Part shown: positions 7,186-21,127 of the stretch, one piece after another
Numbering within the stretch: the stretch's first letter is position 1
How the letters are laid out: the number at the start of each line of letters is the position of its first letter
NCBI GenBank assembly: GCA_003345595.1
Contig: PRDI01000059.1
Span: 1-28,095, forward strand
Direction: 5' to 3'
Origin: Candidatus Thorarchaeota archaeon
GTDB taxonomy: Archaea; Asgardarchaeota; Thorarchaeia; Thorarchaeales; Thorarchaeaceae
Length of the DNA: 28,095 nucleotides
Notes under the pieces: generated by a model
What the model was told of the DNA's origin: nothing
What the model saw: only the letters and a program-made list of their open reading frames with translations
The model's database searches: none
Made by a program: the position numbers and the translations under genes

Positions 7186-7656
7186 ATGAGCAGTCCATCA
7201 GCCGAAGATGTCAGAAAGGCCAGTATGGTGACAGTAGCAAGCGTCCACACGGTCTACATCGAAGCGGTCCGAAAGATATCAGGCGAGAAAGGTCTGAGAG
7301 CCGTAGGCGAGGCGAACAGGCTTCACGGCTTGGAGCTTGGCAAAGCGGGTGTAGCCAGCGGAGGCCTGAAGAAGGGTGATCTGAAGTCCATCTATGAGTT
7401 CTTTCAAGGAGCTCACCCATACTTCGGCTTCGAAATAGAGCTTCTCAAGGCCACCAGCCGTGAGCTCGAAATGAAGGTCACTTACTGCCCATGGATTGAA
7501 ACCTTCAAGTCAGAAGGTGCAGGCACGGACATCTGCAATTGGGTCTGCAAAATGGACGAAGGCATCGGCCAAGCTGTTGATTCCAAGCTTGCGATGACAA
7601 TTCCGAAGTGCATGATGCGAGGAGATGCATATTGCATCTATCGCTACCAGAAGTAG
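7186..7656 (+). CDS. V4R / ATC-hydrolase-like small ligand-binding protein
   Basis: 156 aa with CPW, ICNWVCKMD and CMMRGDAYC cysteine pattern typical of the V4R-like L-2-amino-thiazoline-4-carboxylic acid hydrolase family. Confidence 0.75.
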   Translation: MSSPSAEDVRKASMVTVASVHTVYIEAVRKISGEKGLRAVGEANRLHGLELGKAGVASGGLKKGDLKSIYEFFQGAHPYFGFEIELLKATSRELEMKVTYCPWIETFKSEGAGTDICNWVCKMDEGIGQAVDSKLAMTIPKCMMRGDAYCIYRYQK

Positions 7657-7679
7657 CAAACAGACATGCACAATGCTTC

Positions 7680-8810
7680 CTATACTCTAATCGGGTACCG
7701 CCCCTTCTTGAACGCATAGTCGTACATGTCCACAATCTTCTCTGGTGTGGAGTCAGGTTGGATGTTGTGCGCCGGGGCAAGTATGTACCCGCCACCCGGG
7801 GCGAATGCACGCAGGCGCGTTTCGATCTCCTTTCTTACGGCAGCAATAGTGCCCCCAATCGACATTGCCTCTTGGAGGTCCACCCCACCGTGGAAACAGA
7901 TCTTCTCACCGTACTTCCGCTTCAGAGTTGCAGAGTCCATGCCCTTAGCCAGCGGTTGCACAGGATTGAGTATGTCCACGCCAACTTCAATCAGGTCGTT
8001 GATGACAGGTTCGATTGCACCACAGCTGTGGAACAGTATCTTGACATGAGGCGCTCTCTCATGGATTTCCCCGTAGATTCGCTTGTGCCTGGGTTTGATG
8101 AGGCCGCGATACATCGCAGGACTTACGATCATCCCCTGCTGGTGGCCAAGGTCATCTCCCACCTGAACTATGTCGAGATATTCGCCCACTTGGTCGAGAA
8201 AGACCCGATTGATGTCCGTCGCATACTCCATGCACTTGTCCATCATAGCCTCAGCCAAGTCGCGACGGGTGGCCAGGTCAAGCAGGAATGCCTCATAGCC
8301 TCGCATATAGTGTTCACAGAATTCGAGCACACCCCATGGTCCTCCAACCATACCTACTACGGCACAATCACCGTCTTCGTGCAAGTGCCGTGCCCACTCT
8401 ACAACCCCGTCCATTCGAGATGGGTCGTCCACGTTTGGCCATTCGTATTGCGAAACCTGCTCTATCTCAGTGAAGTCTGCCCACGGATGGTGCACAATCT
8501 CCCAGTACGGACCTATCCACTTTCCACGAAATCCATACTCCGTGTCGACTGAGCCGTCCTGATACGTCTTCGGTTTGAAGCTGGACGCTTCTCTCATGTA
8601 CACGCGTCTGAAGTCAACGTGAAGCCGGTTCAGCAGCGCTTCTGAGATTCTCCAGCTACTCATTATACCCCACTCTTGCGTTTCAGGGGCATCTATTCCA
8701 AGGTAGCTTCTGACCTTCTCATAGGCCGCAGGAGTGATCCACAGGTCGAGTGGTACTCTGTCGGCTTCGCTGTGTTCGAGTGCCGCATGAACCCTATCTC
8801 TTGGTTTCAT
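7680..8810 (-). CDS. UroD/MtaA-superfamily protein (methyltransferase-associated type)
   Basis: MKPRDRVHAALEHSEADRVP, GDDLGHQQGMIVSP, FHSCG, GVDILNPVQP, GGGYILAPAHNIQ. Start at ATG 8810 after GGAG. Confidence 0.88.
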   Translation of the reverse strand: MKPRDRVHAALEHSEADRVPLDLWITPAAYEKVRSYLGIDAPETQEWGIMSSWRISEALLNRLHVDFRRVYMREASSFKPKTYQDGSVDTEYGFRGKWIGPYWEIVHHPWADFTEIEQVSQYEWPNVDDPSRMDGVVEWARHLHEDGDCAVVGMVGGPWGVLEFCEHYMRGYEAFLLDLATRRDLAEAMMDKCMEYATDINRVFLDQVGEYLDIVQVGDDLGHQQGMIVSPAMYRGLIKPRHKRIYGEIHERAPHVKILFHSCGAIEPVINDLIEVGVDILNPVQPLAKGMDSATLKRKYGEKICFHGGVDLQEAMSIGGTIAAVRKEIETRLRAFAPGGGYILAPAHNIQPDSTPEKIVDMYDYAFKKGRYPIRV

Positions 8811-8833
8811 TCGCTGGCGTTCTCCTGCCGAAA

Positions 8834-8844
8834 TTGTCAGACTA
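8834..8844. promoter_or_regulatory. Putative operator TTGTCAGACTA
   Basis: GTC(A/T)GAC-core palindrome between the minus-strand TATA-like TTTAATAT (about 8854-8861) and the start at 8810. Confidence 0.5.
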
Positions 8845-8945
8845 TTGGAGCCTATATTAAACCTGCACATAAGGGGGTACCGAAGTGCTTTAATGACGAG
8901 CACGGGTTAGGTTTGAACTTGCACCCTATGGATCACGAATGCCTT

Positions 8946-8958
8946 CGGTCTGACACCT
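8946..8958. promoter_or_regulatory. Putative operator CGGTCTGACACCT
   Basis: The 12 bp GGTCTGACACCT is identical to 14015-14026; lies just upstream of the mtaA-like RBS. Confidence 0.55.
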
Positions 8959-8978
8959 CAAAGGAGTAAAACCTCAGT

Positions 8979-10013
8979 ATGCGTAATTCTCGAGAATTGG
9001 TGCTTCAGAGTCTTCGCCATGAGCCGCCTGACCGCACCCCTGTTATCCCTCTTGCTGGTCTGTTCACAACGACAGTTTCAGGAATCCCCGTGAACAAGTT
9101 GCTGCGTGATGCCGATGCACAGACTCGTTCGCAGCTTGCTTCACTCAGGCAATTCGGCTACGACGGCGTCGTCACGATTATGGACCTCACTGCAGAGGCT
9201 GAGGCGCTCGGAGCTACCGTGAAGTATCAAGAGACCGCATTTCCGTACATCACTAAGCATCCATATCCGGTAGCCGCGGACTTTCCAGACCTCGAACTAC
9301 CAGAGATTAGGAAGACCCGGCTGTCTGTGTTCGTTGAAACAACGAGGAGTCTTGTGAAGCAAGTCGGAAAGACTCACTTCGTCGGCAGCTACGTGATAGG
9401 ACCATTCACTCTCGCGGGCCAGCTGATGGGAGTTGACCCACTATTTGAGCTGATCACAGACGATCCGGACAGGGCTTTGTCCATTGTGAATAGCTGCGAG
9501 AACGTGCTCGAACCATACGTTGAGCGGCTCCTCGAGGCAGGTACGCACAGTGTCATAATCCTGGAACCAACCGCCAGCTCAAGCGTGGTACCGCCTGACT
9601 TCTTCGTCAGGTATTCTGTGCCCAACGTCAAGAAACTGATCTCGCTCGCAAGAGCTCAGGGCGCAGGTTCGACGCTTCATATCTGTGGGAACACGACGAA
9701 GATCATCGGGCTCATGTGCGATACAGGGGCTGATGCTTTGAGTCTTGATTCCAAGATTAGTATTGAGGCAGCCATGAAGACAGTCAATCAGAGATGCACG
9801 ATCATAGGAAACGTCGACACGACCCTGATGCTCACTGGCACAGTCGACGAAATCGTGACGGCAACCGAGCAATGCATTCAAGCAGCAGGTCCAAGTGGAG
9901 CTGGATTCATTGCGAGTACTGGCTGCGACCTCCCGGTCGAAACTCCATTCGACAATGTCCGGGCATTAGTAGATACTGCCAAGGGTCACAAGCCCGCCAA
10001 GCGTTCTTTGTAG
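8979..10013 (+). CDS. MtaA/MtbA-like methylcobamide:thiol methyltransferase (UroD superfamily)
   Basis: DLTAEAEALG and GPFTLA; zinc-ligand pattern LHICG...STGCD (H-x-C...C) is intact. Confidence 0.82.
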   Translation: MRNSRELVLQSLRHEPPDRTPVIPLAGLFTTTVSGIPVNKLLRDADAQTRSQLASLRQFGYDGVVTIMDLTAEAEALGATVKYQETAFPYITKHPYPVAADFPDLELPEIRKTRLSVFVETTRSLVKQVGKTHFVGSYVIGPFTLAGQLMGVDPLFELITDDPDRALSIVNSCENVLEPYVERLLEAGTHSVIILEPTASSSVVPPDFFVRYSVPNVKKLISLARAQGAGSTLHICGNTTKIIGLMCDTGADALSLDSKISIEAAMKTVNQRCTIIGNVDTTLMLTGTVDEIVTATEQCIQAAGPSGAGFIASTGCDLPVETPFDNVRALVDTAKGHKPAKRSL

Positions 10014-10018
10014 GATGA

Positions 10019-10029
10019 TTGTCAGACCA
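10019..10029. promoter_or_regulatory. Putative operator TTGTCAGACCA in a convergent intergenic gap
   Basis: The most symmetrical copy of the recurring motif, but located between two gene 3' ends. Confidence 0.35.
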
Positions 10030-10136
10030 GTTGGCATTCCGACGGTGGACTCGTTTACACACGGACCATTCATTGTGGGATAGACAACCTTGGATTCGGT
10101 CGTCCTGACCATAGCAGACACGGCACACTCTTCGAA

Positions 10137-11579
10137 CTAGGGTTTCTTCTTTGCGCGCGCCTTGATTATCTCCCGCATCTTCGCCTCGACATCCTTGTCC
10201 AGAGGGCTAACCTTGTGAGTCTCTAGGATCTTCTTGATTTTCTCCTTCGCTCTCAAGACCATGTCTTTTGATCCCTTGCCTTCCCAGTCTGGTCTCGAGG
10301 TCCTGTCAGTAAGGGAAGGTATCCAGTACTCCTCCAAGAGGTGCTTGCGAGTGAAGTCTAGGCCCTCGTCACTGGTCAGGTAGTTGCTCTCATGACCAAT
10401 CCTATCAATCAAGTCCACGGCAAGGGTTTCCTTCGTTACCTTCATGCCTTTTGCTATCCGCTTGATTGCTCCGCATATCTCATTGCTGATGGCGAACATC
10501 TCATAGCTTGCCGTGATTCCGGTCTCCACAATGCCGTATACAGCGTCGTGCACTACATCTACGCCTGCAAGAGTTGCCGTTAGCACGTTCATTGTGTTCT
10601 CATAGGCTGCCTGCGCGTCTGGAACTTTCGAATCGACTATGCCCGCTGCTCCATAGTAGGGTATGCCGTAGTAATGGGCCACTTGGCAGAACGCAGCGTG
10701 TATCAGCCCGTTCTCTGGGCAGCCATACGAGGCCGTGCCATGTCTTTGGTCCATGATCGTCGCACATGATCCCCATATCATCGGAGTGCCTGGTCCGACA
10801 AGTTCTGTCAGAACGAGCACGGCGTGATTCTCAGCTACTCCCTGTACAACCATCCCGGCGAGCGTGACAGGGCCGCTTGCACTGGCCAGGGCTCCTGTGC
10901 TTATGTCAAAAGGAATCTTGTACTTAGCGCACTCAAGGGCGATGTCTATTATGTTTGCCGTGTATTTGAGCGGTGGCACATTGTTGAGGCCAGTATCGAT
11001 GATGGACGGGTTTCTAAGAAACTCCTCTTCGCCTCCTGCATATAGCTTGGCCATCTCAATTACGTCCCTGAATCCTTCTTGTGTCACTGCGAGAAAACTC
11101 AGGTGCTTCTCAGAGCTCTTGAACATCGAGAGCGCCATGGTCTGCTCAAGGATGTCTTGTGACACTTCCTGCGGGATTATGTTCGGCTTGATGTAATCCA
11201 CTGCCGGGAAGTAGTCAGCGAGCAATGTGAACTCCTCCAAGTCCCTAAGAGTTGAAGCTCTGCGCTGTCCTGTGTTCAGATCATACGTGGACTGAGCCCC
11301 AAACGCGTTTGTGAAATAGGAGTTGCCGTCGCCAATGAGTATGTTGTATTTCGGATTGATGGCTTTGAAGAGGTGCCTGCTCGGAGTCTTCCTCAACGTT
11401 TCCTTTACCAAGTACTCCGGTATGTGGGCGACCTTCTTCTTCTGATCAATAGTTGCACCTGCCTCTTTGAGTATCTTGAGAGCCTCGTCATGCTGAATGA
11501 GTATTCCGGTTCTCTCCAGTACTTCCATGGCAGCCATGTGTATCGCATAGACTTCGTTCCGACTCAGCAGTTCAAACAT
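10137..11579 (-). CDS. Trimethylamine methyltransferase (MttB) superfamily protein, pyrrolysine-free type
   Basis: IHMAAMEVLERTGI, GPVTLAG, DSKVPDAQAAYE, ETLAVDLIDRIG, WEGKGSKD. Uninterrupted 480 codons with no in-frame TAG. Confidence 0.92.
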   Translation of the reverse strand: MFELLSRNEVYAIHMAAMEVLERTGILIQHDEALKILKEAGATIDQKKKVAHIPEYLVKETLRKTPSRHLFKAINPKYNILIGDGNSYFTNAFGAQSTYDLNTGQRRASTLRDLEEFTLLADYFPAVDYIKPNIIPQEVSQDILEQTMALSMFKSSEKHLSFLAVTQEGFRDVIEMAKLYAGGEEEFLRNPSIIDTGLNNVPPLKYTANIIDIALECAKYKIPFDISTGALASASGPVTLAGMVVQGVAENHAVLVLTELVGPGTPMIWGSCATIMDQRHGTASYGCPENGLIHAAFCQVAHYYGIPYYGAAGIVDSKVPDAQAAYENTMNVLTATLAGVDVVHDAVYGIVETGITASYEMFAISNEICGAIKRIAKGMKVTKETLAVDLIDRIGHESNYLTSDEGLDFTRKHLLEEYWIPSLTDRTSRPDWEGKGSKDMVLRAKEKIKKILETHKVSPLDKDVEAKMREIIKARAKKKP

Positions 11580-11603
11580 TTAGCGTTCACCTACTCCCTG
11601 ATA

Positions 11604-12260
11604 TCAAGCTGGCTTTTTCGCGAGCAGCCGCACGGCAAGACTCACCGCTGTCACCGCATCACCTGCCCATCCATCAGCACCAATATCCCTTGCCCACTTC
11701 TCTGTGGTGGGGGCGCCTCCTATTATGACCTTGACCTTGTCCCTCAAGCCTGCTGCTTTCAGCTCGTCTATTATCTTCCTTTGAACAGGCATAGAGGAAG
11801 TGATGAGCGAGGAAAGGCCCAGAACGTCTGGTTTCTGGTCTCTCACATTCTTCAGGATGACCTCTATCGGTACATCCTCTCCCAAGTTCGCCACTTCGAA
11901 CCCGTGCGCCTCCATCATTGTGGCGACGATGTCCTTTCCAATGCTGTGAATGTCGCCCTGCACAGTTGCTATGACCACCTTGCCCGCACTCTTGATCTTG
12001 CTCTTTGAGGCCTTGATCTCCGGCAGAAGGACTGACATCCCCGCCTTCATAGCCTTGGCTGCTGCCATGAGCTCGACAAGGAAGACCTCGCCTTCACCGA
12101 ACTTGTCGCCAATCTCTCTGACACCTTTGGCCAACCCGTTGGTTATCGCGTCCATGGGAGATATCTTAGCTTCTAGAGCCTTCTTGGCTGCACTCGTGGC
12201 TTTGTCTTTGTTTCCTTGAATGACTGCTTCTCGCATTTCTTCTAGTATGGATGACGACAT
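11604..12260 (-). CDS. Corrinoid (B12-binding) protein, MttC/MtaC family
   Basis: N-terminal cap domain, DIHSIG (DxHxxG), GLSSL, IIGGAP, IGADGW. Confidence 0.95.
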   Translation of the reverse strand: MSSSILEEMREAVIQGNKDKATSAAKKALEAKISPMDAITNGLAKGVREIGDKFGEGEVFLVELMAAAKAMKAGMSVLLPEIKASKSKIKSAGKVVIATVQGDIHSIGKDIVATMMEAHGFEVANLGEDVPIEVILKNVRDQKPDVLGLSSLITSSMPVQRKIIDELKAAGLRDKVKVIIGGAPTTEKWARDIGADGWAGDAVTAVSLAVRLLAKKPA

Positions 12261-12339
12261 CGTTCTGTTACCTCACTTCTGTTGAACCGACTTTCATCTC
12301 AGGATGATATGTCCTCCGATAGTTCTCAGCTTCTGGTGA

Positions 12340-12360
12340 TAAAGAAAAAAAGAGGAGGAG
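12340..12360 (-). terminator. Oligo-T archaeal terminator after the APC permease gene
   Basis: Minus strand ctcctcctcTTTTTTTcTTT about 20 nt after the stop codon. Confidence 0.5.
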
Positions 12361-12371
12361 GCTTAGCCCCC

Positions 12372-13964
12372 TCACTCGGGTGGTAGAGACTCGTAGATAG
12401 ATCCTACTTCGATGTTCTTCTTCCTGAGGTGCCGGGCATACACCACAAACCACAGGGCCGAAAAGCCATACTGCACTGTCATCATGACCACGGAAAAGAA
12501 CGCTGCTCCTTGGAAGAAGCCTATCATCACGAAGAGTGACAACGGCAGTATTATGATACCCAGCAACGACACAACTGGGAACCCGGCAATCTCGGGTTGC
12601 TTCCTTATGCTGCCCTCGTAAAGTGGTCTCTTTAGATATGGAAGCTGCAGGGCGGCCATGGATTGGAATATCATTTCAACGCCCCAAAGTCCGACCAGGG
12701 AAGTGACAACAGCAAGGAAGGCGACCATACCTGGCAACGCAAAGACAAATGCGAATGGCAGGCTAAAGAGGAAGTAGTATGCGATTGCATAGGTCGGGGT
12801 GTGGTACTTCGAGAGCTTTCCAAAGAACGATGGCATCATGCGGTCAAGCGAGCCTTGGAAGAACCCTCGGGTCACCCATGCCATGTTGATCGGGGTCGCA
12901 GTGAGTCCGATTACTGGGGCGGAGAGTAGAATCCAGCCTGAAATAGCGGGGTTCCCCGCTAACACAGCCGTCATTGTACCAAATCCGGTCGTGAAGGTAG
13001 GAGTTATCGTCACGCTGGCAGCTGCCACAGCATACTGAGTGGAGAAGTAACCGAAAGTACCTTGGAACAAGGCTGCTCCTCCTGCGAGCAATACCGCTAG
13101 AATGATGCCGCCAAGGACCTGTACAAGAACGAGGTTCTTCGCAGGGTCAGACATCTCGCCACCATAGTGCAGGATCAGATATGGCCAGACAAGACCGACC
13201 GGCCAAATCGTGGCTAGGAAGGTCATCTGCCAGCTGAACGCCGGTGCAACACCGAACCCCGCACCCGTGGCGACAGTCACCACTTCGCTGTAGGCTCCGG
13301 CTCCGAAAGCGGCGTTCCATCTTGACTCGACCGCAGAGGCGGGAGTGGCGACAAGCACCAGTATCGCCATAATCCATCCTATCGTGGAGAACAGACCACC
13401 AATCATCTGAATACGGGGCTCAAGCCTGAATAGCGGACCTAAGTAGGCAACAATAACGAAGACGAGCATTAGGAATATTGAGAGTCCGACCAGAAGGTAT
13501 GGGTTTCCGATCTGGGCTGACATCGCTGCTCCCCATGATTTCAACATTGCGTTGCCGCTGACTGCTCCCCATTGAGCGAAAGCAGCACCTAGGTATACGA
13601 TAAAGAGGAAGAACTCACTCATCTTGATGATTGGATTCGCGATTATTCCTCGCCACACTGCGAGAATCCCTGTGACTGGGTTGAAACCTCTCGCCGAGAT
13701 TTGGTAGATACCTGCTGACCGCGGCATAGCCATGGACAGCAGTGTTATCATGACTGTGTAGATCAACATGAAGCCGAGACCTATGCTCCAGGTTAAGGCT
13801 GCGCTTATCCCGGGGTAGAGGTCCTGAAGAACGCCGGCGAACATCCACTGATATGTGCCGAGGCTTGCGCCTATTACGGCAAAGAGAGATGTCCAAGTGC
13901 CGAAGTACTTCGTGAGGCCCGATGTTGGTCTTAGAAACAGGACTTCTCCTGTACGTTGTGCCAC
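12372..13964 (-). CDS. APC-superfamily amino acid/amine permease
   Basis: 530 aa, 12 or more TM. FLRPTSGL N-terminus, AMPRSAGIY, GGEMSDP, DRMMPSFFGKLS..HTP, C-terminal YESLPPE. Confidence 0.9.
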   Translation of the reverse strand: MAQRTGEVLFLRPTSGLTKYFGTWTSLFAVIGASLGTYQWMFAGVLQDLYPGISAALTWSIGLGFMLIYTVMITLLSMAMPRSAGIYQISARGFNPVTGILAVWRGIIANPIIKMSEFFLFIVYLGAAFAQWGAVSGNAMLKSWGAAMSAQIGNPYLLVGLSIFLMLVFVIVAYLGPLFRLEPRIQMIGGLFSTIGWIMAILVLVATPASAVESRWNAAFGAGAYSEVVTVATGAGFGVAPAFSWQMTFLATIWPVGLVWPYLILHYGGEMSDPAKNLVLVQVLGGIILAVLLAGGAALFQGTFGYFSTQYAVAAASVTITPTFTTGFGTMTAVLAGNPAISGWILLSAPVIGLTATPINMAWVTRGFFQGSLDRMMPSFFGKLSKYHTPTYAIAYYFLFSLPFAFVFALPGMVAFLAVVTSLVGLWGVEMIFQSMAALQLPYLKRPLYEGSIRKQPEIAGFPVVSLLGIIILPLSLFVMIGFFQGAAFFSVVMMTVQYGFSALWFVVYARHLRKKNIEVGSIYESLPPE

Positions 13965-14001
13965 GTGAATAGCCTCGAAAGCCCGTTACAGCTCACGCTG
14001 G

Positions 14002-14026
14002 CATTTAAAAGTTTGGTCTGACACCT
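14002..14026 (-). promoter_or_regulatory. Permease promoter: TATA box TTTTAAAT with the adjacent AGGTGTCAGACCA motif
   Basis: Minus strand aggtgtcagaccaaacTTTTAAATg; TATA about 40 nt before the GTG at 13964. Confidence 0.6.
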
Positions 14027-14065: not shown

Positions 14066-14773
14066 CTAAACTACGACTTTAACAATATAGTACCTTCTCC
14101 AAGGCCGGGGTTTCTTCACGACCTCGATATGGTCGTAATCAACAAACCCAAGACCAACCATGTGCTTCTCCGGTTCCTCACCTGCCTGCAACAAGTACTG
14201 TCGCAGTTCGTCGATGAGCATCTGCACGGTTTCGCGAAGGTCAATAGAGCGAAGTTTCTGCGCTTCCGGGTTATCCCTGAAGTACGCATCAATCTTGCCT
14301 GCGATTCTGGATCCGATGAGACCTCTGGAAACAAGGCCCGCAAGTAGTGATCCAAGAGCAATGAAGATCATGTAGGGTCCAATCTGCTGAAGAATGACAA
14401 CCCCCGGGGCAAAGAGTGATATGAATAGTATGAGGAAAGCAATGGGAACCAAGATCTGCCACATTGCCTCTATATAGGACTGCATCTTGGACAATCGGCG
14501 TGCACCGGGGATCTTGACGGTGATTCGAGCCATTTTCCACATCTTGAGCTGGACAGATTTCCAGTCTTCTGCAAACGGGCGGCCAAGATTGCCCGCCTGG
14601 ACCTTCTTATCAATCCAGCTGAAGTCATAGAAGACGTGGGATCTGTAGGCGTCTATCGTATAGGCGACCTTTCCAATCTCGGTGGGGTCCACCTTTCCCC
14701 GACGCGCACTCGGCTGAGAACGTCCGCGGTCTAGGCGTCCGCGCTCATCGTCATCGCCCATCATTTTTGTCAC
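14066..14773 (-). CDS. Hypothetical 2-TM membrane protein
   Basis: Central hydrophobic hairpin with soluble flanks; 11 nt downstream of the phosphoesterase stop, so probably co-transcribed. Start may be the ATG at 14764 or 14761. Confidence 0.75.
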   Translation of the reverse strand: MTKMMGDDDERGRLDRGRSQPSARRGKVDPTEIGKVAYTIDAYRSHVFYDFSWIDKKVQAGNLGRPFAEDWKSVQLKMWKMARITVKIPGARRLSKMQSYIEAMWQILVPIAFLILFISLFAPGVVILQQIGPYMIFIALGSLLAGLVSRGLIGSRIAGKIDAYFRDNPEAQKLRSIDLRETVQMLIDELRQYLLQAGEEPEKHMVGLGFVDYDHIEVVKKPRPWRRYYIVKVVV

Positions 14774-14784
14774 GGCTCTGGCGA

Positions 14785-15735
14785 CTACGCGGACACGTTC
14801 AGTACTTCAACCTTCCCACCCACTTCCTTGGGCAGGTCGAGGACGAAGGCGTTCAGCATACCTTGAACATAGACCGACCCCGAATTCACACATAGGGTTC
14901 GACCTATCTGTTCTATGCCGCCAGATTCGTGAATGTGCCCATGTAGACCAAGTAGGGGTTGGTACTTCTCAAACAGTTCCCGCATGCTCCTGCTGCCCAC
15001 ATGAACCATGTCAATGTTGCCAAAATGGATCTTCACTCTCTGCTGGCTGTCCAGTTTCGGAGCAAGATCGAGTCGCGTTCCGAATGGAGGCGCATGGAAA
15101 TTACAAATCAGGTTTTCGTACTGCCCGACTCGACTAAACTCCTCCTGCAGCCTGACCTTCAAATCCTCGTCAGAGCATTCACGAGGTGTCCCCCAAGGTG
15201 TGGAATTGACCCATTCGCAGCTGATCATCGAGTGAATCTCATCAATCTCCACCACGCGCTCGAGAGGGTATACTATCCTCTTGCTGTTCTTGATGAGATC
15301 ATCGATGGCCTGCGCGTCATCGTTTCCTGGTGATACGACAACCTTCACATCGGCAGGGACAGTTTCTTCAATCCATTGGAGCCAATCTCGTATCCTGTCG
15401 ATCATCAGTTTGGTGAACAGATCGCTTGCTTTCTTTTGGTCTGACTGCAACTCAGTCAGCTCTGACTCGGTGGTCATGAACCAGTAGAAGCCGCGCTTCT
15501 CGAAGGCCTTCTTCGCCGCTTCAACTGCCTCTTGATTCTTGTACTTCTCCCTTGTCCCATATGGAGCTGACCACCAAGAGCCCGGCTTGTCTTCTATGAT
15601 GGGCACAAGAGCCTTCCCGGTCAGGTCCCCACACATCATGACCACATCGCATTTGTATGCTTCGTGGACCTTTGCCATCTTTCGCAGTACTGGAACACTA
15701 CCGTGTGCATCGCATGAGAAGAAGAGTCGTGTCAT
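14785..15735 (-). CDS. Calcineurin-like metallophosphoesterase (Icc-related), GNDD variant
   Basis: All five motifs present: CDAHG, CGDLTG, PGNDD, NFHAPP, HGHIHE. Start moved to MTRLFFS. Confidence 0.9.
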   Translation of the reverse strand: MTRLFFSCDAHGSVPVLRKMAKVHEAYKCDVVMMCGDLTGKALVPIIEDKPGSWWSAPYGTREKYKNQEAVEAAKKAFEKRGFYWFMTTESELTELQSDQKKASDLFTKLMIDRIRDWLQWIEETVPADVKVVVSPGNDDAQAIDDLIKNSKRIVYPLERVVEIDEIHSMISCEWVNSTPWGTPRECSDEDLKVRLQEEFSRVGQYENLICNFHAPPFGTRLDLAPKLDSQQRVKIHFGNIDMVHVGSRSMRELFEKYQPLLGLHGHIHESGGIEQIGRTLCVNSGSVYVQGMLNAFVLDLPKEVGGKVEVLNVSA

Positions 15736-15766
15736 CGGCCGAATCCTTTCGGAAGGCAGCACAGCA

Positions 15767-15820: not shown

Positions 15821-16603
15821 ATGCAGGGAGTAACAGGGCCGAATGATTCATTCGTCAAGGAAGGCTTGCGAATCGTACGGGCGGCTGAAAAGGAAGGAGT
15901 GGTCTTGAGAGTCATGGGTGCTGTGGCAATCAGGATTCATTGTCCCGGATCCCTTGACCTGCTCCAAAAGCTTGGACGTGATATATCGGACATCGATTTC
16001 GTGGGCTACGAGAAGCAGACCTCAAAGATAGAGAAGCTGATGCCGACACTTGGATACACCAGCAGGCGGCTATCTTACAGTTTTGCACAGGCAGGACGAT
16101 TGATCTTCTTGGACAGCTCCGACCCGACTGGCTCCAAGCACATCGATGTCTTTCTTGATAGATTGGCGATGTGCCATACTATTCCCTACTTGGGACGACT
16201 TGAGGTTGACAGTCCCACGGTTCCTCTTGCAGAGATTCTACTTCAGAAGACTCAGATTGTGCAGCTGAGTGAGAAGGATGTAAAGGACACCATGGTGCTT
16301 TTCAAAGAGCATGACATAGGCGCCGACGACTCGGACACAATCAACATACGCTATATCGCTGAGCTACTCTCGAAAGACTGGGGATTCTATCACACCGTGA
16401 CCACAAACCTGCAGAAGGTGAAATCGCTCGTCGACGGGTTTTCGGTCCTGTCGGCGCAAGACAAGCAACTCGTCGTGTCCAGGATTGACAAGAGCCTTGC
16501 TAGGCTCGATGCTGAGCCGAAGACCAGCGCTTGGAGAATGCGTGCAAAGGTTGGGGTCAAGAAGAAGTGGTACAAGGATGTGTATTCCCCCGCCAAGCTC
16601 TAG
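15821..16603 (+). CDS. Uncharacterised Pol-beta-superfamily nucleotidyltransferase
   Basis: hGAxA motif (VMGAVA), DxD (SDIDFV), third acidic residue (HIDVF), later LQK and KDVKD helices; basic Trp-rich C-terminal tail. Confidence 0.75.
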   Translation: MQGVTGPNDSFVKEGLRIVRAAEKEGVVLRVMGAVAIRIHCPGSLDLLQKLGRDISDIDFVGYEKQTSKIEKLMPTLGYTSRRLSYSFAQAGRLIFLDSSDPTGSKHIDVFLDRLAMCHTIPYLGRLEVDSPTVPLAEILLQKTQIVQLSEKDVKDTMVLFKEHDIGADDSDTINIRYIAELLSKDWGFYHTVTTNLQKVKSLVDGFSVLSAQDKQLVVSRIDKSLARLDAEPKTSAWRMRAKVGVKKKWYKDVYSPAKL

Positions 16604-16712: not shown

Positions 16713-17792
16713 TCATTTCGGGAAGACTATCTGCACTTTGATTGATTTCGACTTCTCCTTGTTCAGAGCGATGTCGAATGCAGCAGGAGCATCATTGAGA
16801 GGATATCGGTGAGTGATGAGCTTCTTGACATCGAACTTACCTCGAGCCAGAAGGTCGAGTGATACAGCGAACTCCTTGATGTGAGTCCAGTTCTCGTATC
16901 CCCAAGCCGATCTCATGACCAGCTCCTTGGTGAGGAATCCGAATGGTTCGATTGAAACCGGCTTCACGTAGATTCCGGTCATCACTAGGATCCCCCTACG
17001 TCTCAGAACCGATAGGCCATCGGTGACCGCAGATGACTCTCCGCCAACAGATTCTATGACCTTGTCTACTCCATTGCCACCTGTCAATTCATTGATTCTG
17101 TCAACAGGTTTCTCAGTGCGTGCATTGATTACGCCTGCGGCTCCGAAATCCTTCGCTGCTCTAAGCTGGAAGTCGTGTGTGCCCACCGCATGAACTTCTC
17201 TGGCACCTGCCAGTAACGCCGCCTTGACTGCTAGAAGTCCGATTGTGCCGGCACCAAACACTGCGACCGTGTCCTCATTGGAAACCTGTGCGAGCCTGAC
17301 TGCATGCTCGGCCACGGAGATGCAGTCCAGCATGGCTGCCTCTTCGAATGACACACTCTCTGGCAGCTTGAAACAACTGTCAGCCGGGACTGCGCAATAC
17401 TCAGCCATGCCACCATTGAGGTAGAATCCTACGAGCCGAGAGGCAGAGCACAGATTGTACCACCCGGCACGGCACCACTTGCACACCCCGCAGCTGATGG
17501 TGGGCTCAACCCCAACTCTGTCACCCTTGGCAATCCCTGTCACGTCAGGTCCTATCTGGTAGACCTCTCCCGCGAGTTCATGCCCAGGCACGTATTTTCC
17601 TTCCCCAAGTTCAGAGGAAACGGGGATGGGAGTCTTCTGTTTGTAGAGATGCAGGTCGCTCCCGCATATCCCTGCCGCTTTCACTTTCAGGAGGACCCAC
17701 CCCGGTCGAAGGTCCGCAATGTTGATGCTTTCCACTCTGACGTCCTTCGGACCGTACAAGACTGCTGCTCGTGTGCTTTTCAAGCTCGACAC
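16713..17792 (-). CDS. Zn-dependent medium-chain dehydrogenase (threonine/sorbitol dehydrogenase-like)
   Basis: GICGSDLH, GHELAG, structural zinc CGVCKWC-x7-C, Rossmann GAGTIG. Confidence 0.93.
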   Translation of the reverse strand: MSSLKSTRAAVLYGPKDVRVESINIADLRPGWVLLKVKAAGICGSDLHLYKQKTPIPVSSELGEGKYVPGHELAGEVYQIGPDVTGIAKGDRVGVEPTISCGVCKWCRAGWYNLCSASRLVGFYLNGGMAEYCAVPADSCFKLPESVSFEEAAMLDCISVAEHAVRLAQVSNEDTVAVFGAGTIGLLAVKAALLAGAREVHAVGTHDFQLRAAKDFGAAGVINARTEKPVDRINELTGGNGVDKVIESVGGESSAVTDGLSVLRRRGILVMTGIYVKPVSIEPFGFLTKELVMRSAWGYENWTHIKEFAVSLDLLARGKFDVKKLITHRYPLNDAPAAFDIALNKEKSKSIKVQIVFPK

Positions 17793-18548: not shown

Positions 18549-19709
18549 TCAAATCACGCGCGCCAGCAACTCCATCAGATCACAAACCTGTAGATGCCCA
18601 CCCGACGAATCGGATGAATCCTTCAGGTTTTGCCTGCAGAATGGACATGTAGTAACGAGATACTGTGCTGCGGTCTGCTCGGCTTCCTTGATCCTTTCAT
18701 TCGCGACCTTCAGTGCTGAATCGGGGAAAGCAGACTTCACACCTCCACCAGCACCGCAGCACCACGCATCTTCGCGTGTACGTTCCATCTCAACAAGCTC
18801 CAACCCGGGTATCGATTTGAGGACTCTTCTGGGGGGGTCGTACACACCTGTGTGCCTTCCCAAGTGGCACGGGTCATGGTAAGTGACTTTCGCGTCGATT
18901 CGGCCATTGAGCTGAAGCTTGCCCCTACCTAGCAGGTCCTCAACAAACTCTGAGAAGTGGAGAACCTTCCACGGCATCTCTCCAAGAAGCTTAGGATAGT
19001 CCAGCTTGAGTGTTCTATAGCATCCCGGGCAATGGGTTACAATGGTTTCCACTCCTAGAGACCTAAACAACTCAACGTTATGATTCGCAAGGTCCAATCC
19101 CACATCTCTTGCACCTGTCCTGAAGGCTACTGAGCCGCAGCACCATTCCTTGGGAGCGACCAGAACCTCAACTCCCGCTGCATCCATGACTTGTAGGGAC
19201 GCTCTTGAGATCTCAGGCTGCCTGTATGGAGCTGTGCACCCAGTGAAGTACAGTATCTTGCTTTGTCCTGAAACATCCTTGCCTTGGGGTATCCATTTCA
19301 CTCTGTCTTCATGCTTTTCCATGTACGGATTATGTTCCTTCTTGATCCAATCTAGTATCTCCTTGTGTCGGGGCATTGGTCCGAGCCCGACGTCTGCCAT
19401 ATCGGCTCTGAGGGCCTCAAGAATATCCACCAAGTCCAAATGGATGATCCTATCGCAGATGGTCTCACAGGATCCGCAGAGTGTGCATTCATAGATCCTC
19501 TTGGCGAGCTCAGGAGAGGGGTGCAGTTCTCCATTCATGAGAGCTCTTGCAATGAGAAGCTTCCCCCTAGCTGTTGAAGATTCAAACCTGCCCAAGAATC
19601 GTGAGGGACAACGGTCTTCGAGATAGCCTCCTCCACAGTAACCACATCTCCCACACTTCCAGATTTGGTTGTAATACTCAGAGATCTGCATTACTTTGCC
19701 TCCGTTCAT
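18549..19709 (-). CDS. Fe-S oxidoreductase with two 4Fe-4S motifs and two CCG domains (GlcF/GlpC/HdrD-like)
   Basis: CGRCGYC...CP, CTLCGSCETIC, WCCG twice, CPGC, YHDPCHLGR, CPFC. ATGA overlap with the upstream gene. Confidence 0.92.
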   Translation of the reverse strand: MNGGKVMQISEYYNQIWKCGRCGYCGGGYLEDRCPSRFLGRFESSTARGKLLIARALMNGELHPSPELAKRIYECTLCGSCETICDRIIHLDLVDILEALRADMADVGLGPMPRHKEILDWIKKEHNPYMEKHEDRVKWIPQGKDVSGQSKILYFTGCTAPYRQPEISRASLQVMDAAGVEVLVAPKEWCCGSVAFRTGARDVGLDLANHNVELFRSLGVETIVTHCPGCYRTLKLDYPKLLGEMPWKVLHFSEFVEDLLGRGKLQLNGRIDAKVTYHDPCHLGRHTGVYDPPRRVLKSIPGLELVEMERTREDAWCCGAGGGVKSAFPDSALKVANERIKEAEQTAAQYLVTTCPFCRQNLKDSSDSSGGHLQVCDLMELLARVI

Positions 19710-21127
19710 CGTATCATCTTCCCCGGATTCAGAATGTCGTTAGGGTCCAGCTCCTTCTTCAGTCGCTTAACAAGCTCATACCAGCCACCAAGTCTGGGAA
19801 TCGAGTATTTCGCTAGGAACAGGTGATCGCCCAATCGCCAAGGCATGAAACCTAGCTCAAACCATTTCTTCGTGAGCTCCTCGGCAGTCTCTCTGATACG
19901 AGGGCGCTCTTCCGGGTCAATATAGCGAAACTCCCCGAAGACTCCCCAGCCTCTAGGAATCAACCATCCCCCGAAGCCGGCCTTTGGCGGAGGTATCCAA
20001 CCGTGCTTCTTGATCACGACCTCTTCCCAAACTTCGAAGAATTTGTTTAGCGAGTAGAGTGGACAATATCCGCCGACATAGTCGATTGGGCCCGGCTCGA
20101 AGTAGTCAGTCAGACCACCCCATAGATAGCCGTGATCGCGATGATGAGTCACCTCTGTCTTCTTGGGATCGCCTTCCTTCCCGCCTGCCTTCTCGCAGAT
20201 GTCTCTTATCCTCTCGCAACGAAACTCAAGTTCCTTTTCGGTATAACCATACGTCCAGACCCTGGCTTCTGCTCCCGGTCCAGTTGACACACATCCCCCT
20301 TTGGTGTACTCCAGATGAAAGACCAACTCATCACCTACAGGCCTAGTCACTTCATCACCGACTTTCTCTACGTTTTCCAGTCCCGGGAATTCGAAGAACA
20401 TGTAGGCATCCAATGGAATCGGCGTTACTCTCAGGGTGACCTCGGTGATCACTCCCAGCTCTCCGCCCGAGCCAATGAAGAACTGCGTCAGGTTTGGCCC
20501 TATCCCTCCGCTATCGAAGGGTCGAAGCCCAAGATACTCTACGGCGGCCGTCTTTACTATCTCGCCAGTCGGTAGGACAACCTCGAGGCCCAAGACGTCC
20601 CATCCTAGTCTTCCTCGTTTCGTCACTCCTATTGAACCCGAACCCCTCTTCGTTATGCTAGCTCCAATCGTTATGGCCCGACCACCCATCTCTCTTGGCT
20701 CACATGATAGGCCTAGCTTCTTGAGCTCATTCCGAAGCTTGAACCAGGTACACCCGCCTTGAACGGTTGCGGTCAATTCCCTCTCATCGATCTCTACGAT
20801 CTGATTCAATGAGGTCATGTCCATCAGGATTCCACCCTGCACCGGGAGCCATTCTCCCCAGTGCGAAGTGCCACCACCTCTGACATAGACCGGTATCCTA
20901 TACCGGTTTGCCACTCTAACGATGGTTGAAACCTGGTCTGTCGTGTAGGGTCGGACGACAAACGATGCTCTCTTTTCTGGAGCTGAGCTCAAGTCCCGAG
21001 TGTAGGCCTCAAGGTCAAAGTCCTTGTCAGACACATTCTCCGGTCCAACTATGTTCTCCAAAGTCTTGTAGAGTAATCCATGATCTTCAGTCAAGCTAAA
21101 ACACCTGGTCAAGTCGCCTAGTCGCAT
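19706..21127 (-). CDS. FAD-binding oxidoreductase (GlcD / D-lactate dehydrogenase / VAO family)
   Basis: VRP..TDQVS, RGGGT, VLGLEVVLPTGE, FIGSGGELGVITE, C-terminal LDPNDILNPGK. Alternative TTG start at 21094. Confidence 0.92.
   Translation of the reverse strand: MRLGDLTRCFSLTEDHGLLYKTLENIVGPENVSDKDFDLEAYTRDLSSAPEKRASFVVRPYTTDQVSTIVRVANRYRIPVYVRGGGTSHWGEWLPVQGGILMDMTSLNQIVEIDERELTATVQGGCTWFKLRNELKKLGLSCEPREMGGRAITIGASITKRGSGSIGVTKRGRLGWDVLGLEVVLPTGEIVKTAAVEYLGLRPFDSGGIGPNLTQFFIGSGGELGVITEVTLRVTPIPLDAYMFFEFPGLENVEKVGDEVTRPVGDELVFHLEYTKGGCVSTGPGAEARVWTYGYTEKELEFRCERIRDICEKAGGKEGDPKKTEVTHHRDHGYLWGGLTDYFEPGPIDYVGGYCPLYSLNKFFEVWEEVVIKKHGWIPPPKAGFGGWLIPRGWGVFGEFRYIDPEERPRIRETAEELTKKWFELGFMPWRLGDHLFLAKYSIPRLGGWYELVKRLKKELDPNDILNPGKMIR

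Follow-up and report, generated by a model that had tools for sequence, protein, structure and literature searches.

Corrinoid-dependent demethylation of methylated amines by members of the MttB family is known from methanogens and from bacteria. In the methanogen Methanolobus vulcani, the glycine betaine:coenzyme M (CoM) system consists of MtgB, an MttB-family first methyltransferase (MT1) without pyrrolysine (Pyl), the corrinoid protein MtgC and the zinc enzyme MtaA, a second methyltransferase (MT2) of the UroD superfamily (PMC6855144). Desulfitobacterium hafniense (MtgBCA) and Eubacterium limosum (MtcB, MtpB, MtyB and MthB with MtqC/MtqA) likewise use non-Pyl MT1s, a corrinoid protein with a DxHxxG motif and a RamA-type activase, and their MT2 is a pterin-binding enzyme which methylates tetrahydrofolate (PMC13080624, PMC12155760). 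Here we describe a related cluster at positions 7186-13964 of a DNA stretch of 28,095 nucleotides from a Candidatus Thorarchaeota archaeon (contig PRDI01000059.1 of assembly GCA_003345595.1; the whole stretch is referred to as the window). The cluster encodes a Pyl-free MttB-family enzyme, its corrinoid protein and a presumed importer, and, unlike the bacterial systems, is accompanied by a zinc enzyme related to MtaA and by no gene for a pterin-binding MT2.

In Asgard archaea such an architecture is not new. Hermodarchaeota were reported to carry mtt, mttC, mtbA and corrinoid-linked mtrH without methyl-coenzyme M reductase (MCR), and the same has been cited for Thorarchaeota (Zhang et al. 2021, PMC8163825). 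The non-Pyl MttB and MtbC of Atabeyarchaeia and Freyarchaeia, which belong to an uncharacterised Asgard/TACK clade, were interpreted as likely methyltransferases for quaternary amines that deliver methyl groups to the Wood-Ljungdahl pathway (Valentin-Alvarado et al. 2024, PMC11291895). As far as the available portions of these two papers go, their gene sets resemble the present one in Pyl-free MttB, corrinoid proteins, MtbA/MtaA homologues and corrinoid-linked MtrH, lack both MCR and a full Mtr complex, and led to models in which MttB, corrinoid protein and MtrH feed the methyl group into the tetrahydromethanopterin (H4MPT) branch. The same portions present gene counts and trees rather than biochemical results. 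They describe neither a permease/corrinoid/MttB/V4R-like cluster with phosphoesterase and alcohol dehydrogenase (ADH) flanks nor active-site residues nor a variable placement of a His-Cys-Cys enzyme. The present locus adds a defined conserved neighbourhood, an active-site signature and distribution data.

We propose, with a probability of about one half, that the locus serves a non-methanogenic Thorarchaeon as an accessory module for uptake and demethylation, with its main methyl exit through an MtrH-type methyltransferase to H4MPT. The APC-type permease would import an N-methylated, non-acidic amine, probably quaternary or permanently charged. The Pyl-free MttB, as MT1, would transfer one methyl group to Co(I) of the 218-aa corrinoid protein, and RamA, encoded on contig C96 or C117 of the same genome, would re-reduce oxidised cofactor. 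Methyl-Co(III) would be unloaded mainly by the MtrH-type enzyme onto H4MPT and the methyl group then oxidised via the H4MPT branch. The MtaA-like His-Cys-Cys enzyme is envisaged as S-methyl-specific and as served by the same corrinoid protein, either draining methyl groups from it to a thiol that is not CoM or feeding it additionally from methylthio compounds. Gene identities, motifs, synteny and the inventory of the genome are shown below, while the class of substrate, the MT2 that acts and the direction of the MtaA-like step are inferred.

The MttB-family enzyme, its corrinoid protein and the presumed importer

The cluster sits on contig C59 of a metagenome-assembled genome (MAG; G000) of 2.73 Mb and 83% completeness. 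Genes not found in this or other MAGs are not thereby proven absent. For the distribution of genes we surveyed 61 genomes of the window's order, 24 of them of high quality, and counted MttB orthologues at 70% identity or more and members of the MtaA-like clade at E <= 1e-70. The elements of the cluster are as follows.

10137-11579, minus strand: MttB-family methyltransferase (MT1), 480 aa (PF06253, 336.7 bits)
11604-12260, minus strand: cognate corrinoid protein, 218 aa (PF02310 and PF02607)
12372-13964, minus strand: APC-superfamily permease, 530 aa, presumed importer (AA_permease_2, E 6.5e-9)
8979-10013, plus strand: MtaA/Mlp-like (MtaA/CmuA-like) zinc methyltransferase of the UroD superfamily, 344 aa (PF01208, 232 bits)
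7680-8903, minus strand: UROD2, a second, divergent URO-D paralogue, about 380-407 aa (PF01208, 98.3 bits)
7186-7656, plus strand: stand-alone V4R-fold/ATC_hydrolase-family protein, 156 aa (PF14196, E 6.5e-16)
10541-10640, minus strand: stretch inside mttB matching the Rfam family PYLIS_3 (51.5 bits)

An earlier, sequence-only reading of this DNA had listed an MttB-family enzyme, a corrinoid protein, an MtaA-like enzyme, an importer and a V4R-like protein, and all of them are present with strong family scores; UROD2 and the PYLIS_3 match inside mttB had been overlooked. The MttB-family protein matches PF06253 (COG5598) over residues 2-478 far above the cut-off of 25 bits, which places it in the superfamily. 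We compared it with characterised enzymes by bit scores to entries of the PDB and by residue mapping. The best solved relative is Methanosarcina barkeri MttB (7XCL, 256.6 bits), followed by MtgB (9YCE/2QNE, 234 bits). The reading frame of mttB contains no in-frame stop. Within YYGAAGIVDSKVPDAQ (residues 308-323), Pyl334 of M. barkeri MttB aligns to Ile314, which is encoded by AUA, and relatives have Ile or Val at this position. M. barkeri MttB thus differs in its UAG codon and Pyl. Moreover, the score against the trimethylamine methyltransferase equivalog TIGR02369 (444.9 bits) stays under the cut-off of 525, and PylS was not found in the MAG. On these three grounds we rejected the protein as a true trimethylamine methyltransferase. 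Its assignment as a non-Pyl member of the family is supported by the alignment, in agreement with the earlier observation that no amber codon is present.

Orthologues from Thorarchaeota and Hermodarchaeota are 69-97% identical to the window protein. When representatives were searched (7136 clusters at 50% identity), the nearest other cluster was 42% identical. The nearest relatives of MttB, of the MtaA-like protein and of the permease occur in MAGs titled Candidatus Thorarchaeota, with a few from Hermodarchaeota or Promethearchaeia. The MttB orthologue is patchily distributed, occurring in 15 of 61 genomes and in 6 of 17 genera. The MAG encodes a second MttB-family paralogue of 490 aa on contig C125 (L017:3516-4988, minus strand), which has His at the position of MtgB R312 and Leu at the Pyl position and is not adjoined by a corrinoid gene.

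A match to PYLIS_3, the pyrrolysine insertion sequence of mttB, begins exactly at codon 314 and scores above the gathering score of 38 bits. It recurs at the identical codon in seven orthologous loci (L002, L003, L004, L006, L007, L008, L010) and is absent from the C125 paralogue and from the orthologues in L024 and L025. It was considered as a possible relic recoding signal and rejected as a working one: there is no UAG, eight positions of the alignment carry the non-standard-pair mark on the NC line, and it is conservation of the coding sequence that accounts for the score. Because of these eight positions, the match probably reflects coding sequence common to Pyl-type mttB genes; the DNA that follows the Pyl codon in M. 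barkeri is similar enough for the window to reach the gathering score.

The corrinoid protein has the B12-binding_2 cap (PF02607, 76 bits), the Rossmann B12-binding domain (PF02310, 100 bits) and the motif GDIHSIG, i.e. DxHxxG, at residues 103-108, as expected of the MttC/MtbC/MtgC type. Against TIGR02370 it scores 212.9 bits, just under the cut-off of 215.3. Its gene adjoins mttB in all related loci. Only three corrinoid proteins with a cap domain were found in the MAG, on contigs C59, C96 and C25.

Concerning the substrate, a study of 2026 located the glycine betaine site of MtgB at Y97, R312, H348 and F356 and noted that every characterised member has R312 and acts on an acidic substrate (PMC13080624). 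The bacterial quaternary-amine enzymes keep the R312 salt bridge for acidic substrates, whereas the thorarchaeal clade has Tyr or Phe. The equivalent residues of the window protein are F93, Y309, H344 and G354. F93, H344 and G354 do not vary among the window protein and 12 orthologues, and position 309 is occupied by Tyr in 12 of these sequences and by Phe in one. Two of the four glycine-betaine-binding residues of MtgB, R312 and F356, are therefore replaced by Tyr and Gly, the same residues that M. barkeri MttB has at these positions. Identity as an MtgB glycine betaine methyltransferase was rejected on this residue pattern. The clade is thus not MtgB-like, a carboxylate-bearing substrate is disfavoured, and the substrate is probably neither glycine betaine nor another acidic betaine.

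The permease gene lies upstream of the corrinoid gene, an arrangement kept in 10 loci, and a terminator-like hairpin follows its stop codon on the 3' side. As proposed in the sequence-only reading, the protein belongs to the APC rather than the BCCT transporters; a BCCT match was not found. The further hint drawn there, that an APC permease points to a methylated amino acid, is not supported. Orthologues of the permease (at least 68% identity) are almost confined to Asgard MAGs, identity drops to 26% for the next relative, and searches returned no PDB relative and no characterised or named relative, so the permease gives no clue to the substrate. In addition, the Tyr in place of the otherwise conserved R312 argues against a methylated amino acid.

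In most relatives the V4R-like gene directly follows mttB in the same orientation. Pfam assigns the protein to ATC_hydrolase; its AlphaFold2 model (pLDDT 94) is matched by Foldseek to Bet3 and to the sensor domains of MopR/PoxR/DmpR with TM scores of 0.6-0.7, so that the label V4R-like appears fair on the basis of the predicted fold. Four cysteines (101, 117, 142 and 150) are invariant. A complex prediction of MttB with the V4R-like protein scored 0.00 and gave no verdict, speaking for neither side.

Possible routes for the methyl group in the host genome

McrA was found in 0 of the 61 genomes of the order, and ComA above its cut-off in none of them; the description of the host as an apparent non-methanogen is therefore well supported. 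McrA, McrB and MtrE, as well as the CoM synthesis proteins ComA, ComB and ComD (sulfopyruvate decarboxylase), were not found in the MAG by the genome search for mcr, CoM biosynthesis and pyl genes that the sequence-only reading had proposed, which speaks against its caveat of a bona fide methanogen. M. vulcani, in contrast, is a methanogen with CoM and MCR.

The same search, extended to mtrH and ramA, was positive. The MAG encodes three MtrH homologues as well as RamA/RACo activases on two contigs, C96 and C117. MtrH is widespread in the order (60 of 61 genomes, 1-4 matches per genome); a route to H4MPT therefore exists. On contig C59 there is no RamA or pterin/MtrH gene, the matches being confined to C96, C117, C86 and C75. 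The earlier statement that no RamA-type activator or pterin methyltransferase is present thus holds for the window and the whole contig, but not for the genome, which includes a corrinoid-RamA-MtrH cluster. This cluster on C96 (L015:4603-7917, minus strand) encodes in a row a 210-aa corrinoid protein, a 538-aa RamA/RACo protein that includes a Fer2 domain, and a 301-aa MtrH homologue, and is likely to be a generic activation-plus-H4MPT methyltransferase module, judging from its gene content. A 499-aa open reading frame beside the C96 corrinoid gene was tried as a novel MT1 and rejected, being NurA-like and paired with a 587-aa HerA-like protein. A run on C86 (L019:5185-10896, plus strand) encodes a MetV-like protein (DUF5981), MetF, an MtrH homologue, MtrA, MtrH and a DUF2114 protein. 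Mch is also present in the MAG.

None of the 61 genomes gave a match to MetE (PF01717), and the MetH-type homocysteine domain PF02574 was not found in this MAG. Consequently, no recognisable methionine synthase is present, and the zinc enzyme may have a methionine-forming role. A precedent for carrier sharing comes from the marine bacterial MtgBCDE system, in which one corrinoid protein serves both an MttB-family demethylase and a zinc homocysteine methyltransferase, coupling glycine betaine demethylation to methionine synthesis (PMC12478193). The thiol methyltransferase of MtgBCDE is a PF02574 protein and is accompanied by a pterin module, whereas the enzyme in the window has the URO-D fold.

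The conserved neighbourhood, the zinc enzyme and UROD2

Further genes belong to the neighbourhood, as follows.

14066-14773, minus strand: conserved 235-aa protein between phosphoesterase and permease, at the same position in 10 related loci
14785-15762, minus strand: calcineurin-like metallophosphoesterase, first gene of the co-oriented run (Metallophos_2, 31.3 bits)
15821-16603, plus strand: divergent 260-aa gene, faintly nucleotidyltransferase-like (NTP_transf_5, no better than E 0.04)
16713-17792, minus strand: zinc-dependent medium-chain alcohol/polyol dehydrogenase, outer gene of the neighbourhood (ADH_N and ADH_zinc_N)

Metallophosphoesterase, 235-aa protein, permease, corrinoid protein and MttB form a co-oriented run on the minus strand. 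The phosphoesterase is 64-90% identical in related loci, where its position is unchanged, and its head-to-head arrangement with the nucleotidyltransferase (NTase)-like gene is kept as well. The 235-aa protein had no match in Pfam and NCBIfam searches; the top NCBIfam matches of the ADH, tdh and IolM, are all under cut-off. The order ADH, NTase-like gene, phosphoesterase, 235-aa protein, permease, corrinoid protein, MttB and V4R-like protein is found in about 10 loci of Thorarchaeota and Hermodarchaeota, and in most of them no MtaA-like gene adjoins mttB. In the lineage of the window, the block of V4R-like gene and UROD2 appears in inverted orientation, and between it and mttB lies the MtaA-like gene, convergent to mttB; UROD2 is transcribed divergently from the MtaA-like gene.

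Several observations were made beside this gene order. Paralogous sets of permease, 235-aa protein, phosphoesterase and NTase-like gene lie just 3' of the MttB-V4R genes in L006:11139-17424, L007:5772-12109 and L014:2142-8484, and the one in L007 is accompanied by an S-Me-THD-like (PF06032/PF20906) gene. A GlcD-like FAD oxidase and a CCG/TfrB-like iron-sulfur subunit are encoded at 18549-21127 of the window (minus strand), 8 kb from the cluster; the same pair occurs at L022:10534-13117, 1.5 kb from the MtaA-like orthologue of another Thorarchaeon. The palindrome-like motif GTCWGAC (8836-14022) was considered as an operator and dismissed, since it is not enriched (10 matches versus 6.1 +/- 2.5 expected; 9 of 100 shuffles reach 10).

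In the MtaA-like enzyme, His234-x-Cys236 and Cys316 align to the zinc ligands of Methanosarcina mazei MtaA (4AY7, E 4.5e-28), as the earlier description of an intact H-x-C...C zinc site implied, and the His-Cys-Cys pattern is invariant in all 41 of 41 members of the Asgard clade. The protein scores 201.7 bits against the MtaA/CmuA subfamily TIGR01463, under 235.4, and falls well short of the equivalog cut-offs of MtaA (151.5 versus 400) and MtbA (156.9 versus 600). In a FastTree phylogeny, the clade is Asgard-specific and stands apart from the MtaA clade of Methanomassiliicoccus. A role as uroporphyrinogen decarboxylase HemE, which the sequence-only reading had named as a possible pitfall, was rejected on the TIGR01464 (hemE) score of 83.6 bits versus a cut-off of 302.95.

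The same enzyme family also includes MT1s which act on methylthio compounds (MtsA, MtpA). In the UroD superfamily, a His-Cys-Cys sphere is typical of S- and Se-methyltransferases, O-methyl enzymes swap one or both cysteines, and MtaA-like clusters occur in many non-methanogens (PMC10418091). Sulfur (or selenium) chemistry is therefore plausible for the MtaA-like enzyme as far as its ligand pattern indicates, and CoM is unlikely as its acceptor. The type 1 mlp clusters of non-methanogens (Kountz and Balskus preprint, PMC10418091) likewise combine His-Cys-Cys UroD homologues of CoM methyltransferases with a corrinoid protein, and a role in methyl-sulfur or methyl-selenium metabolism has been proposed for them. 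They contain two or three Mlp paralogues, Mlp2 and Mlp3 among them, and Ram but no MttB, whereas the window has two URO-D paralogues and a corrinoid protein without Ram.

Members of the MtaA-like clade were found in 24 of the 61 genomes. Both genes occur in nine genomes, the MttB orthologue only in six, the MtaA-like gene only in 15 and neither in 31. Where both are present, they are adjacent in three genomes (G000, G019, G038), within 8 kb of each other in two and elsewhere in four. In G004 and G048 the MtaA-like gene lies beside the ADH gene at the far end of the cluster, at a distance of 6.5-7 kb, and in L003 and L025 it directly adjoins the ADH gene. That the gene turns up near the cluster more than once, and not always at the same position, speaks for a functional link. 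Its absence from the results for six genomes and its convergent orientation in the window, however, argue that it is not an obligatory component. The claim that the methyl acceptor here appears to be a thiol was thus overstated, resting as it did on a variable neighbour that is not found in six of the 15 genomes with an MttB orthologue. In other Thorarchaeota, MtaA-like orthologues are flanked by Hdr-like genes (L021, L022). On a metagenome contig, L023:4709-7598 carries in a row an MtaA-like gene (59% identical), a PAS gene, a corrinoid gene and an MttB fragment; the latter is truncated to 187 aa, matches residues 1-177 of the window MttB with 58% identity and is followed by a gene on the opposite strand.

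UROD2 matches PF01208 over its C-terminal two thirds, and its true start is probably downstream of the GTG. It lies near the cluster in L001, L004, L008, L009 and L010. Its PDB matches are weak and include no informative solved relative. At the ligand positions it has His-Cys-His. MT1s of the UroD superfamily are known, namely CdmB, a chloromethane enzyme, MtoB and MtvB, with homologues in Asgardarchaeota (PMC13222342). By its ligand pattern, which fits the MT1 branch, UROD2 is a candidate MT1 of the O-demethylase/CdmB type. Long URO-D paralogues on contig C25 have His-Cys-His or His-Asp-His at these positions. There, L018:3942-12746 encodes an MFS_2 transporter, a long URO-D protein (His-Asp-His) with a corrinoid protein, and a GH94 enzyme, and further two URO-D proteins, one short (His-Cys-Cys) and one long (His-Cys-His). 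With this gene content, methyl transfer at C25 may involve a sugar-like or methoxylated substrate.

Competing readings and significance

That the MttB module can discharge its methyl groups by way of MtrH is suggested by the six of 15 MttB-positive genomes in which the MtaA-like clade is missing, since there the module must work without the MtaA-like enzyme. Several points weigh against this proposal. The 28 kb around mttB contain neither an MtrH nor a RamA gene. The MT1-plus-corrinoid systems of C59 and C25 each have a short His-Cys-Cys URO-D gene nearby and no MtrH, a pattern that fits MtaA-like enzymes as real MT2s. The count of six genomes is itself soft, because the threshold of E <= 1e-70 would miss other His-Cys-Cys paralogues. 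Moreover, the fate of methyl-H4MPT in the MAG is incomplete, since CdhC and CdhD of the carbon monoxide dehydrogenase/acetyl-CoA synthase were not found in it. The pattern of C59 and C25 lends some weight to a closed three-component system of MttB, corrinoid protein and MtaA-like enzyme, close to the sequence-only reading. The MtaA-like enzyme would then be a dedicated MT2 for a non-CoM thiol (homocysteine, sulfide or an unknown cofactor, for example), and we consider this system a less likely but serious alternative. It would account for the invariant S-/Se-type sphere of the Asgard clade (PMC10418091), for the recurrence of the gene near the cluster at two positions in five genomes and in the linked arrangement of L023, and for the Hdr-like genes beside orthologues in other Thorarchaeota. 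The lack of MetE and of a MetH-type domain leaves room for homocysteine as acceptor. On the other hand, the MtaA-like gene is convergent with the mttB operon and not co-transcribed with it, and it is present in 15 genomes without an MttB orthologue. The acceptor thiol is putative, neither CoM synthesis nor MtrE nor Mcr was found, and the direction of transfer is ambiguous in a family that includes MT1s for methylthio compounds. A special form of this idea, which we regard as unlikely, is that the MtaA-like enzyme is a CoM-independent methyl-Co(III):homocysteine methyltransferase which, with MttB and the corrinoid protein, would make up a methionine synthase that needs no pterin and runs on an imported methylamine. 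If true, it would mean more broadly that Thorarchaeia use an unknown thiol as methyl carrier instead of CoM.

Slightly less probable still is that both URO-D genes encode independent entry MT1s for methoxy, halo or methylthio substrates and that the chemistry of MttB is independent of both, with no more than the neighbourhood or the corrinoid protein in common. The two genes do form a divergent pair of their own, with an aminotransferase gene beside them in L004 and L022, UROD2 departs from the His-Cys-Cys pattern like the long C25 paralogues, and MT1s of this superfamily with Asgardarchaeota homologues are known. But none of the three corrinoid proteins found in the MAG belongs to this pair, and it is the MtaA-like gene, not UROD2, which repeatedly tracks the MttB cluster. 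We give very little credence to a CoM-dependent system as in methanogens, with CoM imported or made by an unknown route, or to the protein at 8979 being a true uroporphyrinogen decarboxylase. The architecture mirrors that of the M. vulcani system, and the best solved relative of the protein is MtaA; against this stand the lack of matches to Mcr, MtrE, ComA, ComB and ComD in the MAG and to McrA and ComA in the 61 relatives, the scores far below the MtaA and MtbA cut-offs, the separate position of the Asgard clade in the tree and, for the decarboxylase, the low hemE score.

The proposed demethylation module would bear on the ecology of these archaea. Methylated amines are major methane precursors in sediments, and Asgard consumers of these compounds which form no methane would compete with methanogens, as the Asgard papers argue. 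The locus provides a well-defined candidate set for a first biochemical test of an Asgard MttB: a compact orthologue group with a conserved importer and a V4R-like partner, an active site without the acid-binding Arg of all characterised relatives, and a recurring zinc His-Cys-Cys enzyme whose acceptor cannot be CoM from a known route. The identity of substrate and acceptor would tell whether the methyl group is destined for oxidation on H4MPT, for sulfur or for methionine.

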